In this document: one piece after another, positions 2,946 to 62,952 of the stretch
Layout: every line of letters begins with the position of its first letter
Numbering within the stretch: the stretch's first letter is position 1
DNA from: Minisyncoccota bacterium
Lineage (GTDB): Bacteria; Patescibacteriota; Minisyncoccia; JBAYJV01
Length of the DNA stretch: 64,000 nt
Assembly (NCBI GenBank): GCA_041664925.1
Contig: JBAYJV010000002.1
Location: 72,302 to 136,301, forward strand
Direction: 5' to 3'
The notes under the pieces: generated by a model
Told to the model about the DNA's origin: nothing
Databases searched by the model: none
The model's input: the letters and a program-made list of their open reading frames with translations, nothing else
Program-made: the position numbers and the translations under genes

Positions 2946-3046
2946 TCATAATTTAATAGATATAGCTCAGGAAGTCAAGGAAACCTCTTTTCGTTGCATT
3001 TTTTTATGTTTTTTGTATAATAATGACATAGTTGTAAATTAACTAT

Positions 3047-3301
3047 ATGGCCGAAAAATTAGTCGGCAAAATTACTCACTACTTTGGAAACATTGGAGTG
3101 GGGATTGTAAAATTGGAAAAAGGGGAAATAAAAATAGGAAGCAAGATAAAAATAAAAACTCACGAAGGCGAGTTTGAGCAGGAAGTAGTGTCAATGCAAG
3201 CTGACCACAAGGACATTACATCTGCCAAAGGCGGCGAAGAATTTGGTACGAAACTAGAACAAAAAGCCCACGAAGGCAACGAAGTCTTTCTAATGGAATA
3301 A
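3047..3301 (+). CDS. small hypothetical protein with EF-Tu/IF2 domain-II-like beta-barrel signature
   Basis: 84 aa; VGKITHYFGNIGVGIVKLEKGEIKIGSKIKIK...VVSMQADHKDITSAKGGEEFGTKL; preceded by TTGCAT-16-TGTATAAT promoter (2994-3023). Confidence 0.45.
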   Translation: MAEKLVGKITHYFGNIGVGIVKLEKGEIKIGSKIKIKTHEGEFEQEVVSMQADHKDITSAKGGEEFGTKLEQKAHEGNEVFLME

Positions 3302-3402: not shown

Positions 3403-3481
3403 GGTGGCTGTAGCTCAATTTGGTTAGAGCACTGGGTTGTGGTCCCAGCGGTTGCGCGTTCAAGTCGCGTCAGCCACCCCA
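3403..3481 (+). tRNA. tRNA-His (anticodon GUG) with G-1:C73 and encoded CCA
   Basis: G-1 GTGGCTG TA GCTC AATTTGGTTA GAGC A CTGGG TTGTGGT CCCAG CGGTT GCGCG TTCAAGT CGCGT CAGCCAC C CCA; cloverleaf closes; extra 5' G paired to C73 is the His signature. Confidence 0.85.
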
Positions 3482-3561
3482 TGAACCGCGTTGGGTTCAT
3501 GGTTGTGTACCCTACGCGGTACATAACTCAGCGATACCCGACGGACTGATTTTGAAAACTT

Positions 3562-3822
3562 ATGTGTTACTATGTATATGTTTTGCGCAGCCTAAAAGAC
3601 GGCTGTTTTTATATTGGTTTTACCAATAATCTAAAAAGAAGATTTTCTCAACACAATTCTGGTCAAGTTAAGAGTACAAAAAGCAGGAGACCATTTAAGA
3701 TAATGTATTACGAGGCTCATACTTCAAAAAAAGATGCGAAAAGAAGGGAGCAATATTTCAAATCTACTAAAGGGAAAAGTACCTTAAGGCAAATGCTCAG
3801 AAATGCACTAGATCAAAAGTAA
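3562..3822 (+). CDS. GIY-YIG nuclease superfamily protein (YhbQ-like small endonuclease)
   Basis: YVYVLRSLKDGCFYIGFTNNLKRRFSQHNSG matches GIY-x10-YIG...R...H/N motif; sits directly 3' of tRNA-His. Confidence 0.6.
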   Translation: MCYYVYVLRSLKDGCFYIGFTNNLKRRFSQHNSGQVKSTKSRRPFKIMYYEAHTSKKDAKRREQYFKSTKGKSTLRQMLRNALDQK

Positions 3823-3887
3823 GGCGCGTTTTAGAATATATTGATCCTGAGGAGCGCAAGCGACGAATGGACAACAATAACTTAAAG

Positions 3888-21155: not shown

Positions 21156-21310
21156 TATACTAATAAAAGATAAAAAATAAAAGACAATTGGCGGAATGTC
21201 ATTCTGAGTTATTTATAGTGAACCTATCGAACCAAACGAAGAATCTTGAGATTTTTTTGACAAACGAAACGGAATAGTAATGCTTAATTGATGATTTACG
21301 ACGAATTCTC

Positions 21311-21861: not shown

Positions 21862-22491
21862 ATGAGCGATGTAATTTTGGAGGGGTTATTCGATTCGACA
21901 ATAAAGGTAAGACTTTTGCGTCTCTTTTTTAGAAATGCTCAATCAGAATACACGCTAGACGAGGTTATTGAAAAAATCCACTCTGATCCAAGCTCAACTC
22001 GCTATCAACTAAGGAAATTAAGAGAAATCGGTCTTTTAAAATCAAAGATTATGCGCTTTGAGCCGGGTGAAGAAGAAAAAGAACATACTAAGAAAATTGG
22101 TCGTGAAAGACGCGTTTATCAAGTCAATGTCGCTTTTCAATTCTACGAAGAACTTAAATCGCTCATTCTAAAATCAACTCCAGAAGTTAGAACTTTATTA
22201 GTGGAAGAACTTCAAAAAATTGGAAAAATCAAACTTGCATTAATAACAGGAGTTTTCTTGAATGTTGATAGTACAAAGATAGATTTATTAATAATTTCTG
22301 ATGATATTCAGCGCTTAAAATTAGTTAAAGTCATAAAATTAATCGAATCGGAAATGGGACATGAGATCAGATATGCCGTGATGAATCAAAGAGAATATGA
22401 ATATCGCTTGGATATGTTTGATAATTTCGTAAGAGGGTTAACTCTGATTCCTCACGAAAAACTGATTGATAAAATGAAAGCCGGAAGCTAA
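21862..22491 (+). CDS. winged-helix DNA-binding domain protein with C-terminal alpha/beta domain (putative transcription regulator)
   Basis: TLDEVIEKIHSDPSSTRYQLRKLREIGLLKSK resembles ArsR/MarR-type wHTH; promoter TTGACA-17-TAGAAT at 21794-21822. Confidence 0.4.
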   Translation: MSDVILEGLFDSTIKVRLLRLFFRNAQSEYTLDEVIEKIHSDPSSTRYQLRKLREIGLLKSKIMRFEPGEEEKEHTKKIGRERRVYQVNVAFQFYEELKSLILKSTPEVRTLLVEELQKIGKIKLALITGVFLNVDSTKIDLLIISDDIQRLKLVKVIKLIESEMGHEIRYAVMNQREYEYRLDMFDNFVRGLTLIPHEKLIDKMKAGS

Positions 22492-22512
22492 TTGTTTCAT
22501 TATAAAACATAA

Positions 22513-22556
22513 GTCATCCTGAGTGAAGCGAAGGATCTCATTTGGTCTTTTTTCTG
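22513..22556. repeat. left half of MITE-like element (GTCATCCTGAGTGAAGCGAAGGATCTC...)
   Basis: matches left ends of 27766, 35281 and 62567 copies; truncated by the promoter motif and tRNA. Confidence 0.4.
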
Positions 22557-22567
22557 TTTCATTTTGC

Positions 22568-22600
22568 ACTTTTCACTTTTAATTTTAAACTTTTTTGCAT
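22568..22600 (+). promoter_or_regulatory. class-II motif (CACTTTTCACTTTTAATTTTAAACTTTTTTGCAT) abutting tRNA-Gln
   Basis: see 3369-3402. Confidence 0.4.
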
Positions 22601-22674
22601 TGCGGGGTCGTCTAACGGTAGGACCGCAGACTCTGAATCTGTGTATCCAGGTTCGAATCCTGGCCCCGCAGCAC
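22601..22674 (+). tRNA. tRNA-Gln (anticodon CUG), U1-A72, G73
   Basis: TGCGGGG TC GTCT AACGGTA GGAC C GCAGA CTCTGAA TCTGT GTAT CCAGG TTCGAAT CCTGG CCCCGCA G; anticodon loop CUCUGAA; U1:A72 and G73 typical of tRNA-Gln. Confidence 0.8.
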
Positions 22675-22712
22675 TTCGGCAAGCTCAGTGCAACTTACCT
22701 TTAATTACCCAC

Positions 22713-24088: not shown

Positions 24089-24135
24089 TGTCATTCCTGT
24101 GCCTGCCTACCGTCAGGCAGGAAAACAGGAATCCA
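24089..24135. repeat. GC-rich long hairpin element TGTCATTCCTGTGCCTGCCTaccgtcAGGCAGGaaaACAGGAATCCA
   Basis: nested inverted repeat; homologous copy at 50166-50228. Confidence 0.45.
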
Positions 24136-27702: not shown

Positions 27703-27731
27703 TTGACATGATATGTTTTTTTTGATAAGAT
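27703..27731 (+). promoter_or_regulatory. class-I promoter TTGACA-17-TAAGAT with AGAACTTAAAAT leader, separated from its gene by a MITE-like insertion
   Basis: consensus. Confidence 0.45.
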
Positions 27732-27765
27732 GAGATAAATAGAACTTAAAATAATATATTAATAT

Positions 27766-27836
27766 GTCATCCTGAACGCAGTGAAGGATCCCGTGTTTAT
27801 GATTATCACGAGATTCTTCGTTTCACTCAGAATGAC
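27766..27836. mobile_element. MITE-like 71-bp element with inverted ends TGTCATCCTGAACG ... CACTCAGAATGAC, in the 5' UTR of the dsbA-like gene
   Basis: full-length related copies at 35281-35355 and 62567-62635; shared core GTCATCCTGAGCGCAGCGAAGGATC. Confidence 0.5.
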
Positions 27837-27846
27837 GGTGAACTTT

Positions 27847-28599
27847 ATGGAATCACAAAAAAATATTTTCGTTATCGCGATTTCAATTATTGTCGCTGGC
27901 TTAGTGATTGGCGGAGCAGTCCTTTACAATGGCTCGCAAGTTGCTAAAGAACAAAAAGCTGATTTAACCGACACTCTTCCTTTGCCACCAGATGAAGTAA
28001 ATGTCCCTACTACCATCACCATAGACACAAAAGGACATCCTTTTATTGGCAAAGAAGATGCGCCTGTAACAATTATTGAGGTCAGTGATTTTGAGTGTCC
28101 ATTTTGTAAGACTTTTGCGGCAGAAACGATGCCGAAACTCAAAGAAACTTACATTGATACTGGCAAGGTGAAATTTTTCTTTGTTGATTTTCCTTTGCCC
28201 TATCATCCTAACGCCCAGAAAGCCGCTGAAGCAGCGTTATGTTATGTTGATCAGGGAAAGGATTACTATGACATTTATAAAAAATTATATGAAAAATCAG
28301 ATGCCCTTGAAGTGGAAAATCTGAAAATCTATGCAAAAGATTTAAAAGTTGATACCAAGAAATTCAATGCTTGTTTAGATGATGGGAAATTTGCTGATCA
28401 AGTTAAGGCAAGCTTTGAGAATATTAATAAAGTTGTTCAGGAATCAAATTTGACTAACTTTGGAACGCCGGCATTTTTTGTCAATGGCAAACCCCTTATC
28501 GGCGCTCAAAAATTTGATGCATTTCAGGGAATGATTGACGATGAATTAGAAACAACAACTACCACAACAAGCACAACAGCCACAAGCACGACAAAGTAA
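27847..28599 (+). CDS. DsbA-family thiol:disulfide oxidoreductase, membrane anchored, Thr/Ser-rich tail
   Basis: start at MESQKN (the longer ORF N-terminus is MITE sequence); TM, then CPFC active site in VTIIEVSDFECPFCKTF and DsbA-like alpha domain. Confidence 0.75.
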   Translation: MESQKNIFVIAISIIVAGLVIGGAVLYNGSQVAKEQKADLTDTLPLPPDEVNVPTTITIDTKGHPFIGKEDAPVTIIEVSDFECPFCKTFAAETMPKLKETYIDTGKVKFFFVDFPLPYHPNAQKAAEAALCYVDQGKDYYDIYKKLYEKSDALEVENLKIYAKDLKVDTKKFNACLDDGKFADQVKASFENINKVVQESNLTNFGTPAFFVNGKPLIGAQKFDAFQGMIDDELETTTTTTSTTATSTTK

Positions 28600-35280: not shown

Positions 35281-35355
35281 TGTCATCCTGAGCGCAGCGA
35301 AGGATCTCTCTTTTTTACTTGCTATGGGATTCTTTGTCTTCGCCTCAGAATGACA
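35281..35355. mobile_element. MITE-like 75-bp element TGTCATCCTGAGCGCAGCGAAGGATCTC...TTCGCCTCAGAATGACA
   Basis: perfect 12-bp inverted ends; related to 27766 and 62567 copies. Confidence 0.5.
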
Positions 35356-40157: not shown

Positions 40158-40514
40158 TTACGAAAACAGACCAACAATTAACTTAATGCCGATAATCTCA
40201 ATTGTTCCCCAAATAAAGAGCAAAACATATGCCACTTTTAGCCACGCAATATGTTTTCCATAACCAATAACGTAAATAGGAACAATTAGTGCGGCTAGGC
40301 GATTAATAACAATCAACGTTATGTCAACTGATGGATTTGAGTTAAGAAAATCAACGCCTCTTAGAGCAACAGTTACATATCTTGTTATTAGAGTAGAAAG
40401 CCAGAGCCAAAAGAAAATCTTAGAACTGATGTTGTGGCGCAGAGCGAACGCCCTTAGTTTAGACAATAATCTCTTAATAGATTCTTTTGCTTTATTCAGT
40501 AAAAACTTATGCAC
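40158..40514 (-). CDS. hypothetical 3-TM membrane protein
   Basis: 118 aa; terminator ATGTCCTTCTgtcaaaaaagatAGAAGGACAT on minus sense. Confidence 0.45.
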   Translation of the reverse strand: MHKFLLNKAKESIKRLLSKLRAFALRHNISSKIFFWLWLSTLITRYVTVALRGVDFLNSNPSVDITLIVINRLAALIVPIYVIGYGKHIAWLKVAYVLLFIWGTIEIIGIKLIVGLFS

Positions 40515-40742
40515 TTTTCCTCCTTTGTTAGTTTTGTAAAGAACTATAAATTGAATTGTATCAGCAAATGCACCCTAAGTCAATGTTTTTAGTTGCTTTT
40601 TTTAAGAAAGTATGCTAATAATATAATATATATGAGTTCTTTAAAAAATAGGCAGTGTCCGCCTTCATTAAAATTTCGGCGGACTTAAAATCTTCTACAG
40701 CCTCGTTTCACTCGGCAAGAAGCTTTAAAGGAGGAAGAGAAA

Positions 40743-45824: not shown

Positions 45825-46085
45825 TTTTCCCTCCTGTTAGTTTCTTCTTTTTGAGCCGTAGACGAAAAACAGAAAAACTTACATCCTGAACGAAGTCGAA
45901 GGATTACATTATGTACCAATTTTTAAAGAACCTCTTTTATTCTATAACTAAAATAATGAATGTCAACATTGTCAACAGTTTTACTTGGTTATTTCATTTT
46001 AAAATCAATTTATCTCTCAACTTCTTTTAAAAAATGAAAAATGTGATACAATATTCATAATAATCATCATGTTAAATATAAAGAA

Positions 46086-50165: not shown

Positions 50166-50228
50166 AAGATTTTACTGTCATTCTGATTTGTTTCTGGATT
50201 CTGCCCGCCTACCGGACACGCAGGAAAG
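50166..50228. repeat. GC-rich hairpin element TGTCATTCTG...GGATTCTGCCCGCCTACCGGACACGCAGGAAAGCAGGAATCCA
   Basis: homolog of 24089-24135. Confidence 0.45.
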
Positions 50229-50286
50229 CAGGAATCCAAAGGTTTTACTTTTGTAAATGGTTTAGAATGATATTAAAAACAATCAA

Positions 50287-62566: not shown

Positions 62567-62635
62567 TGTCATCCTGAATAAAATGAAGGATCCCGTATGT
62601 TCCCTGAGATTCTTCGGCTCCACCTCAGAATGACA
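62567..62635. mobile_element. MITE-like 69-bp element TGTCATCCTGAATAAAATGAAGGATCCCG...CCACCTCAGAATGACA, followed by a second truncated copy (62649-62685)
   Basis: same family as 27766 and 35281. Confidence 0.5.
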
Positions 62636-62748
62636 AGTTTTAGTTTATTGTCATCTTGAGCAAAGCGAAAGATCTCGTTTCTTTGTTAAAATTTATTCAC
62701 AAAAAAAATGAGAGGACTTCTTGTCCTCTCTTGCTTTATACCACTAAC

Positions 62749-62952
62749 CTATCTAAGAACTTGGGATCTTTGAGATCCTTGTTCAATACATACGTTTTCA
62801 AAATAAGCATCGAGGCCTTCTGTTACAAAATCTGTGAGTGTTTTCCTTTCAATAGCTGCTCTTATTTTAAAAGCAGTAACATGACAAGGAAAAAAATAGG
62901 TCGTAGACCGAACTCCTTTTCTCTTACGATCCCTTTTCTTTAGGCCAAACAT
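62749..62952 (-). CDS. small basic protein, possible ribbon-helix-helix (CopG/Arc-type) DNA-binding protein
   Basis: RBS AAAAGGAGGAAAG; KGVRSTTYFFPCHVTAFKIRAAIERKTLTDFVTEGLDAYFE (beta-strand then two helices); terminator GAGAGGACaagaaGTCCTCTC+T8 on minus sense. Confidence 0.4.
   Translation of the reverse strand: MFGLKKRDRKRKGVRSTTYFFPCHVTAFKIRAAIERKTLTDFVTEGLDAYFENVCIEQGSQRSQVLR

Follow-up and report, generated by a model that had tools for sequence, protein, structure and literature searches.

Tagged hairpin arms in a Minisyncoccota genome: a probable new subtype of the repeats that accompany Ssn-type GIY-YIG nucleases

Results

A family of tagged hairpin arms

We analysed a short dispersed repeat in a 64,000-nucleotide stretch of the genome of a Minisyncoccota bacterium (GenBank assembly GCA_041664925.1, contig JBAYJV010000002.1, forward-strand positions 72,302 to 136,301), which is called the window here and whose own coordinates are used throughout. 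The source corresponds to contig Ga0376277_0000593 of JGI metagenome 3300037810, and NCBI assigns a protein identical to one of those encoded in the window to a Candidatus Paceibacterota MAG. Three full copies of the repeat lie at 27766-27836 (copy 1), 35281-35355 (copy 2) and 62567-62635 (copy 3). These coordinates were right in the original prediction, which had described a family resembling miniature inverted-repeat transposable elements (MITEs). A profile (nhmmer) built from the three full copies themselves matched them with E-values of 1e-21 to 1e-24, and the 25-mer core, with at most three mismatches allowed, was found three times in the window and not once in 100 shuffled sequences. Pairwise identity among the full copies was merely 66-72%, so they are not recent duplicates; the conserved part consisted of the two arms, the spacer between them being free. 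Every copy in the window was intergenic, and extensions of 10 kb on each side held no additional full copies. The family is genuine: dispersed, intergenic and non-coding.

The repeating unit is an arm of 25-27 nucleotides, not the 70-nucleotide element. The arm reads (T/C)GTC-ATCCT-GA-GC-GNA-GC-GA-AGGAT-C, that is, an unpaired TGTC tag and then a small hairpin composed of 5 bp (ATCCT/AGGAT), a tandem G.A/A.G, 2 bp and a GNA triloop, with a C tail. The 70-nucleotide full copies are head-to-head dimers of arms with their tags outward, and solo arms are singletons. Among 249 arms in 205 fetched loci, 113 had an inverted partner at a distance of 53-164 nt and the remainder were solo; the base preceding GTCAT was T in 199 arms and C in 35. 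In the window the tag was TGTC or CGTC in every arm but those at 22512 (AGTC) and 45878 (TACA).

Base-pair covariation pointed to the hairpin within each arm. Across 64 distinct arms it was paired in 97.3% of the cells, while slid controls fell to 22-46%. Double-sided changes were present at four of the seven pairs (43 cells), which none of 500 shuffles matched; the remaining three pairs were fixed by the search pattern, so no variation was possible there. In 60 by-catch arms lying outside the search pattern, positions 6-22 were TA in 33, GC in 13, CG in 12 and TG in 2, and unpaired in none. The right arms of the window (B type, ATTCT...AGAAT) differ from the left ones (A type, ATCCT...AGGAT) by a compensatory change within their own stem. 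A/B heterodimers numbered 40 against about 28 homodimers (about 60% of the dimers); they preserve the pairing of each arm, yet they oppose C.A and G.T in the long hairpin that the two arms could form with one another. The selected fold is therefore the small intra-arm hairpin. Its G.A/GNA form exists on one strand only of each arm. DNA mini-hairpins of the d(GCGNAGC) kind are of unusual stability, and the same is true of tandem sheared G.A pairs with a Y-GA-R context.

In copy 1 the left arm (A type, 27765-27791, plus strand) reads TGTC + ATCCT-GA-AC-GCA-GT-GA-AGGAT + CC, its apical pairs A-T/C-G being a compensatory variant of G-C/C-G. The right arm (B type, 27811-27837, minus strand) reads CGTC-ATTCT-GA-GT-GAA-AC-GA-AGAAT-CT on that strand, and its ATTCT/AGAAT stem represents a compensatory change from C6-G22 to T6-A22. 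The left arm of copy 2 (A type, 35281-35307, plus strand) is the same as the pan-bacterial consensus TGTCATCCTGAGCGCAGCGAAGGATCT, and the apex of its right arm (B type, 35329-35355, minus strand) is slightly degenerate. Copy 3 has the apex AT-AAA-AT in the left arm (A type, 62567-62593, plus strand) and GGT-GGA-GCC in the right one (B type, 62609-62635, minus strand).

Arms of the window subtype flank Ssn-type GIY-YIG genes

A profile search seeded from one GIY-YIG open reading frame (ORF) returned four loci in which a GIY-YIG ORF of 93-108 amino acids stands exactly between inverted arms. Three of them, from Chloroflexota (L179), Cyclobacteriaceae (L091) and Hymenobacter glaciei (L144), carry the arm subtype of the window, and the fourth, from Pseudomonadota (L201), has arms (TGTCATTCCCGCGAAGGCGGGAATCC) like those of the Neisseria repeat NTS. 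All four ORFs passed the Pfam profile PF01541 and have the C-terminal motif EKxIKGWxRxKKxxLIxxxNPxW in common, at 45-51% identity. A protein-first search was made against the ascertainment bias of the arm-first search. The Hymenobacter gene had many homologues; several were often present in one genome, and the contigs were often very short. All three protein-first loci examined (L304, L305 and L307) were flanked on both sides by inverted arms of the window subtype; in L304 the Ssn homologue between the arms lies at 4864907-4865206 of the Hymenobacter cellulosilyticus record CP095046.1. The three homologues on viral contigs all had NTS-type arms, two of them on both sides (L292 and L293) and one upstream only (L291), where the contig stops 12 nt beyond the GIY-YIG gene.

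The window subtype was thus found around a single-domain GIY-YIG gene of 93-99 amino acids in six unrelated genomes (L179, L091, L144, L304, L305 and L307). As judged from sequence, Chenal et al. (2025; PMC11893778) described this arrangement as NTS-ssnA-NTS. Since the gene is flanked elsewhere by two inverted arms, the gene-less dimers have the anatomy of non-autonomous derivatives of an IS-like arm-ssn-arm unit. When the 2038 ORFs lying up to 1 kb from arms were clustered, no family recurred except in related phage contigs; the gene-bearing units are a small minority.

Comparison with known repeat systems

Chenal et al. (Nat Commun 2025; PMC11893778) gave the Neisseria NTS as CGTCATTCCCGCGMAVGCGGGAATCYRG and reported that NTS and related hairpins, the Ssn-related motifs (SRM), flank ssnA, a 94-amino-acid single-domain GIY-YIG gene (cd10448). 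For SsnA and three homologues they showed binding of the hairpin and cleavage of single-stranded DNA (ssDNA) upstream of it, on a single strand only, while double-stranded DNA and RNA were left untouched; the characterised enzymes come from Neisseria, N. elongata, N. wadsworthii and Wolbachia. The same authors likened NTS-ssnA-NTS to an insertion sequence, drew an analogy with repetitive extragenic palindromes (REPs) and their REP-associated tyrosine transposases (RAYTs), and described a wide phylogenetic spread. Earlier, Di Nocera, De Gregorio and Rocco (BMC Genomics 2013; PMC3733652) had defined "CGTC-tagged REPs", which include dRS3 and the Rickettsia repeats RPE-4/6. In these the tag is CGTC, or TGTC in many repeats, the stems begin with A-T, the tail is short and most units are head-to-head dimers; no tyrosine transposase flanked by CGTC repeats was found. 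Four families with 8-9 paired stem positions and 4-5-nt loops were reported from 5 phyla, and the pruning step dropped repeats with more than one stem mismatch.

The window arms resemble SRM/NTS in the unpaired HGTC tag that immediately precedes, on the 5' side, a hairpin with a stem beginning AT, in being directional, multi-copy and intergenic, in the inverted arms that flank a single-domain GIY-YIG gene of about 94 amino acids, and in a wide spread over phyla. The 20-50-nt imperfect palindrome forming a hairpin is present in the window arms, as the covariation indicates. The arms of L201 and L293 are near-canonical NTS, the window element at 24089 is of the ATTCC...GGAAT type, and the equivalent of the 24089 arm in L207, a relative of the source genome, reads TGTCATTCCTGCGAAGGCAGGAATCC, which is near the Neisseria NTS. 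The two differ in architecture: in the window arm a tandem G.A separates 5 bp of stem from 2 bp below a GNA triloop, whereas NTS has an 8-bp stem and a 4-nt loop. The associated Ssn genes share only 45-51% identity with one another, the NTS-armed L201 gene included.

With the CGTC-tagged REPs the window repeat shares the CGTC/TGTC tag, the A-T start of the stem, the short unpaired tail, the lack of a dedicated tyrosine transposase and the prevalence of head-to-head dimers, which are often heterodimers there, as are the three in the window. The window stem (5 bp, two G.A and 2 bp, with a 3-nt loop) is found in none of the families CGTC-1 to CGTC-4; given the pruning rule of that survey, the tandem-GA type was probably missed by it. 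The 5 phyla reported there compare with more than 12 phylum labels here, among the matches listed.

Distribution of the arm

The exact arm pattern occurred in 85 viral-contig stretches of IMG/VR and, among the matches listed, in more than 120 stretches of GTDB species genomes. The labels of the genome records matched covered more than 12 bacterial phyla, Patescibacteria included: Saccharibacteria, Patescibacteria/Parcubacteria, Acidobacteriota, Chloroflexota, Nitrospirales, Bacteroidota, Clostridia, Planctomycetota, Verrucomicrobiota, Gemmatimonadota, Omnitrophota, Calditrichota and alpha-, beta-, gamma- and delta-proteobacteria. Arm-carrying isolates include Hymenobacter glaciei, Acidicapsa dinghuensis and Dysgonomonas termitidis, and the arm is also present in the complete chromosomes OZ251550.1, OZ271841.1 and OZ255826.1. 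Deposited plasmids gave four weak matches only, in cyanobacteria, and none of 50,697 deposited phage records contained the arm. The matches in Planktothrix agardhii plasmids (NZ_LR882964.1, 15455-15486, and NZ_LR882951.1, 15417-15448) fall within genes annotated as MmeI-type restriction-modification and BREX PglX methyltransferase, and are possibly intragenic copies.

In IMG/VR loci (L005, L013, L031, L009, L010, L066, L085 and others) an arm or dimer was often directly upstream of a Shine-Dalgarno sequence (SD) and ATG, and several related phage contigs keep a solo arm at one position. The gene uvrB adjoins arms in four unrelated genome loci (L092, L127, L183 and L189).

Searches of Rfam with the window at gathering thresholds and with the element region at E<=10 returned tRNAs and noise only. 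A hammerhead or k-turn as an explanation of the CUGA...GAA core was ruled out by inspection of the sequence. Full-text literature searches with the arm sequence or its translated peptides returned nothing relevant.

Other arms in the window

Two of the half copies listed in the original prediction proved genuine in the profile search, at 22513-22543 (E 3e-7) and 62649-62685 (E 4e-6). The corresponding solo arms are at 22512-22538 (plus strand, tag AGTC; between ORF 21862-22491, which stops 21 nt before it, and a downstream tRNA-Gln) and at 62649-62675 (plus strand; an ATCTT/AAGAT variant that is compensatory at positions 7-21). The piece at about 45875-45900 had also been called a left half; it is instead a degenerate variant at 45878-45910 (plus strand, TTACATCCTGAACGAAGTCGAAGGATTACA), in which TACA stands for TGTC, and it matched the profile weakly. 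The degenerate piece noted at 21192-21250 is present as an arm with an enlarged AT-rich apex at 21197-21247 (plus strand); the base is kept (TGTCATTCTGA...CGAAGAATCT) and the profile match was again weak.

Two GC-rich hairpin elements, given earlier as starting at 24089 and 50166, had been suspected of belonging to a related family, and this suspicion was borne out. The arm at 24089-24135 (plus strand) reads TGTC-ATTCCTG...CAGGAAT-CC and has a GC-rich inner hairpin. The composite arm at 50176-50238 (plus strand) reads TGTCATTCTGA..., then ATTCTG...CAGGAATCC, and part of it matches L207 at the copy-2 site. Both elements have the start TGTCATTC... and the close ...GGAATCC in common, and belong to the same superfamily as the window arms. 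The arms of the ATTCC...GGAAT type at 24089, at 50176 and in L207 are nearer to NTS, and the families are therefore related.

All five solo arms considered (21197, 22512, 24089, 50176 and 62649) and all three A arms are on the plus strand. The dimers are all heterodimers with A on the left and B on the right, in one orientation regardless of the direction of the neighbouring genes, and the cumulative GC skew climbs across most of the window. Arm orientation may thus track the direction of replication, as it would for a target recognised in ssDNA, in what is a small sample. A generic detector of GTCAT followed by any hairpin was uninformative (46 matches against 35 expected).

Turnover between close relatives

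Comparison with orthologous loci, which the original prediction had proposed, revealed turnover. L207 (Ga0247842_10003947) is a syntenic relative with about 86% nucleotide identity to the window. At the copy-1 site its arms keep GTCATTCTGA...GAAGAATC and GATCCTTC...TCAGGATGAC, but they bear other, longer apical hairpins. The copy-2 site has just the CTCAGGATGACA end in common with the window, and the remainder is a mosaic of other tagged hairpins. At 2960-3090, L207 holds an extra element of about 106-130 nt with TACA-tagged arm variants (TACATCCTGAGCTTGTCGAAGGAT), placed upstream of the SD, but downstream of the promoter region, of the ortholog of the window gene 40158-40514; it is missing at the corresponding window position (about 40515-40540), and the window has one arm of the TACA type at 45878-45910. 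These differences show that the elements change over the time in which species diverge.

Copy 1 in the leader of a DsbA-like gene, and other gene contexts

Copy 1 lies, as had been proposed, between a promoter and leader and the start codon of a dsbA-like gene. The promoter-like site (27703-27731, plus strand) has the form TTGACA-17-TAAGAT with an extended TG, and its sequence is conserved in L207. The DsbA/thioredoxin-like gene (27847-28599, plus strand; 250 amino acids, PF13462 and PF01323) starts at ATG 27847, 10 nt past copy 1, and the source's own gene call has the same start. The spurious N-terminal extension described earlier was found at its full length, since GTG 27781 gives exactly 22 codons; the ORF 27781-27846 (plus strand) is an artefact of translating the repeat, and the start of the DsbA-like gene should be annotated at 27847 rather than at GTG 27781. 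The statement that the gene has no SD was nearly right: there is no strong SD, but a weak GGTGA stands 6 nt upstream of the ATG. With a promoter-like site upstream, copy 1 would be transcribed as a 73-nt hairpin (predicted at -25 kcal/mol as RNA) that ends 10 nt before the start codon, and it may thereby have a regulatory effect on the DsbA-like gene.

ORFs crossing arms yield the recurrent peptides ...SFASLRMT... and ...SKAKDL..., and the short ORFs 22500-22682 (minus strand) and 62656-62943 (plus strand), which run across arms, are probably artefacts as well. The gene downstream of copy 2 is on the minus strand, which makes the A arm of this copy antisense. An RNase H gene precedes copy 3 and the solo arm next to it, and a bidirectional terminator comes after them. 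Read on the minus strand, the B arms of copies 2 and 3 (35356-35329 and 62636-62609) contain a promoter-like TTGTCA-16-AAGAAT with 9 of 12 matches. The one in copy 2 is located between the terminator of the upstream gene (35437-35415) and ATG 35262, an interval with no other promoter-like site, and this B arm might supply the promoter there.

A second GIY-YIG-plus-hairpin module

The region 3478-3873 looks like a second, different module of a GIY-YIG gene with hairpins. Its ORF (3562-3822, plus strand; 86 amino acids) comes directly after tRNA-His (3404-3481), and the source's gene call spans just 39 amino acids of it. Ahead of the ORF stand two hairpins, 3483-3498 (plus strand) and 3507-3522 (minus strand), which are mutually inverted copies (GAACCGCGTTGGGTTC and GTACCGCGTAGGGTAC); an arm-like remnant, GATCCTGAGGAGCGCAAGCGACGAATGGACA, follows its stop (3843-3873). 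Homologues of about 70% identity occur in Planctomycetota, Omnitrophota, Peribacteria and Dojkabacteria. Two of these are directly after a tRNA gene (L294 and L302), and two follow an apparent tRNA 3' fragment, recognised by eye only (L295 and L301). Four of the five compared loci have the hairpin pair in common, with compensatory changes in the outer stems, and the motif was seen only beside these GIY-YIG genes.

Discussion

The repeat is, with good probability, a subfamily of the CGTC/TGTC-tagged REPs, alias Ssn-related motifs, whose type example is the Neisseria NTS/dRS3. Within that known system its sequence defines a new subtype, set apart by the hairpin architecture and present in a very broad range of hosts. 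Several observations weigh against this assignment. None of the window copies is near an Ssn gene, and the 83.5 kb searched of the 186-kb source contig (the window and 10 kb on each side) contained no Ssn-type gene. The sole GIY-YIG ORF in these 83.5 kb (3562-3822) was tried as the cognate nuclease and rejected: it belongs to another subfamily (26-33% identity), it is without the C-terminal KGWxRxKK...NPxW motif, TGTC arms do not flank its homologues, and a separate pair of hairpins stands upstream of it. The published SRM string (HGTCWYN(0-2)YYVSBRHN(0-5)WNVSBRGN(0-2)RNCYNB), which is an operational search tool in PMC11893778 and not a biological definition, had no match in the window, although the expression was validated on NTS and on the L201 arms. 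Nearest-neighbour DNA folding of a single arm gave just -2.7 kcal/mol (z about 0), no better than shuffles, and did not reflect the special stability known for mini-hairpins of this kind. Finally, solo arms between co-directional genes are more often sense than antisense (48 against 28), which leaves room for selection at the RNA level.

By analogy with the Neisseria and Wolbachia enzymes (PMC11893778), a cognate Ssn would bind the strand carrying the tag and hairpin when DNA becomes single-stranded in replication, transformation or repair, and would nick that strand a few nucleotides 5' of the tag. Neither the complementary strand nor double-stranded DNA nor RNA would be a substrate, and a dimer would offer one cleavable hairpin on each strand. 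Passengers or relics are what the arms in the window most likely represent, and any Ssn gene that serves them would lie in another part of the genome. The stable leader hairpin beside the start codon of the DsbA-like gene is possibly a side effect.

The repeat had originally been taken for a classical MITE, that is, a deletion derivative of an insertion sequence with a DDE transposase, whose terminal inverted repeats allow cut-and-paste movement in trans. Its size of 70 nt, the inverted ends starting TG...CA, the intergenic multi-copy occurrence and the presence/absence differences from L207 suit such an element. Known MITEs (Correia/NEMIS, RUP, Nezha) are likewise small, non-coding and intergenic, with inverted ends, and can sit in leaders and alter expression. 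The repeat differs from them in that it has neither target-site duplications nor a DDE parent: direct repeats of at least 3 nt were present in at most 2 of 44 non-redundant dimers, with all boundary offsets tried, and no transposase recurred among the 2038 ORFs within 1 kb, the gene-bearing relative encoding a GIY-YIG nuclease. The supposed inverted ends are two self-contained tagged hairpins, which also occur singly; more than half of the arms are solo, and each end folds on itself with internal covariation, for which terminal inverted repeats have no need. The classical MITE reading is therefore largely refuted and we consider it extremely unlikely. It was right in that the dimer looks like a non-autonomous, ORF-less derivative of a small gene-bearing unit, and wrong in the kind of element. 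Mobilisation by a RAYT, a domesticated IS200-like Y1 (HUH) transposase acting on hairpins and inverted doublets, would account for a similar anatomy. Like REP/BIME/REPIN-RAYT systems, the arms combine a 4-nt unpaired tag with a hairpin, occur as singlets and head-to-head doublets between genes and bracket a small single-domain enzyme gene, and the analogy was made in the Ssn paper itself (PMC11893778). The tag is GTAG there and (T/C)GTC here, though, and the enzyme gene bracketed by arms encodes a GIY-YIG nuclease instead of an HUH transposase; in the survey of Di Nocera et al. CGTC repeats did not bracket any tyrosine transposase (PMC3733652). Searches with phmmer (RayT and IS608 TnpA), of limited sensitivity as the RayT query was approximate, covered about 290 loci and yielded a single IS200-like ORF, a non-adjacent one; the window had none. 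A RAYT origin is accordingly very unlikely.

A third possibility is a structured RNA acting in cis, as a leader hairpin, mRNA stabiliser or attenuator, with the character of a DNA repeat being secondary. Predicted RNA hairpins of -18 to -30 kcal/mol (z from -2.6 to -6.1), the place of copy 1, which ends 10 nt before the ATG within a predicted leader, the frequent placement of viral-contig arms just upstream of SD and ATG, the mild sense bias mentioned above and the base-pair covariation would all suit an RNA of this sort. Against it, Rfam gave no match at gathering or E-value thresholds, 37% of the solo arms between co-directional genes are antisense, copy 2 has its A arm in antisense orientation to its gene, and copy 3 comes after one. 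The covariation backs the short intra-arm hairpin, whose proper form exists on one strand per arm, so any transcript of a dimer always holds one arm from the wrong strand; the characterised Ssn partner, moreover, does not bind RNA (PMC11893778). The original prediction had held that covariation of the structured-RNA kind would favour a cis-regulatory motif. The outcome was mixed, as the copies do co-vary but Ssn acts on ssDNA and the orientation to transcription varies; a cis-regulatory RNA is therefore not to be preferred, and we judge it very unlikely.

Beyond membership of the tagged REPs, the arm-GIY-YIG-arm unit could itself be an autonomous element that moves through ssDNA with its GIY-YIG nuclease, the 70-nt dimers being its non-autonomous "MITEs" and the subtype having spread horizontally. 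We put this forward tentatively, as a minority view. GIY-YIG nuclease chemistry is not known to drive transposition in bacteria. If it were true, a near-invariant 25-nt arm would have spread through more than 12 phyla, Patescibacteria and phage-like contigs, and arms landing in leaders may rewire expression.

Assignment to the tagged REPs gives an identity to a repeat that is otherwise translated into many spurious "hypothetical proteins" and that breaks metagenome assemblies. An Ssn gene between TGTCATCCTGA arms in the source genome would make the assignment complete. The Ssn/SRM system would extend to a hairpin architecture missed by the published pattern, to bacteria of the candidate phyla radiation and to viral contigs. 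Ssn enzymes matching the window arm, if characterised, would add a new specificity to the toolbox of ssDNA nucleases, and the very wide range of one arm sequence makes this repeat a good case for studying how such elements spread.

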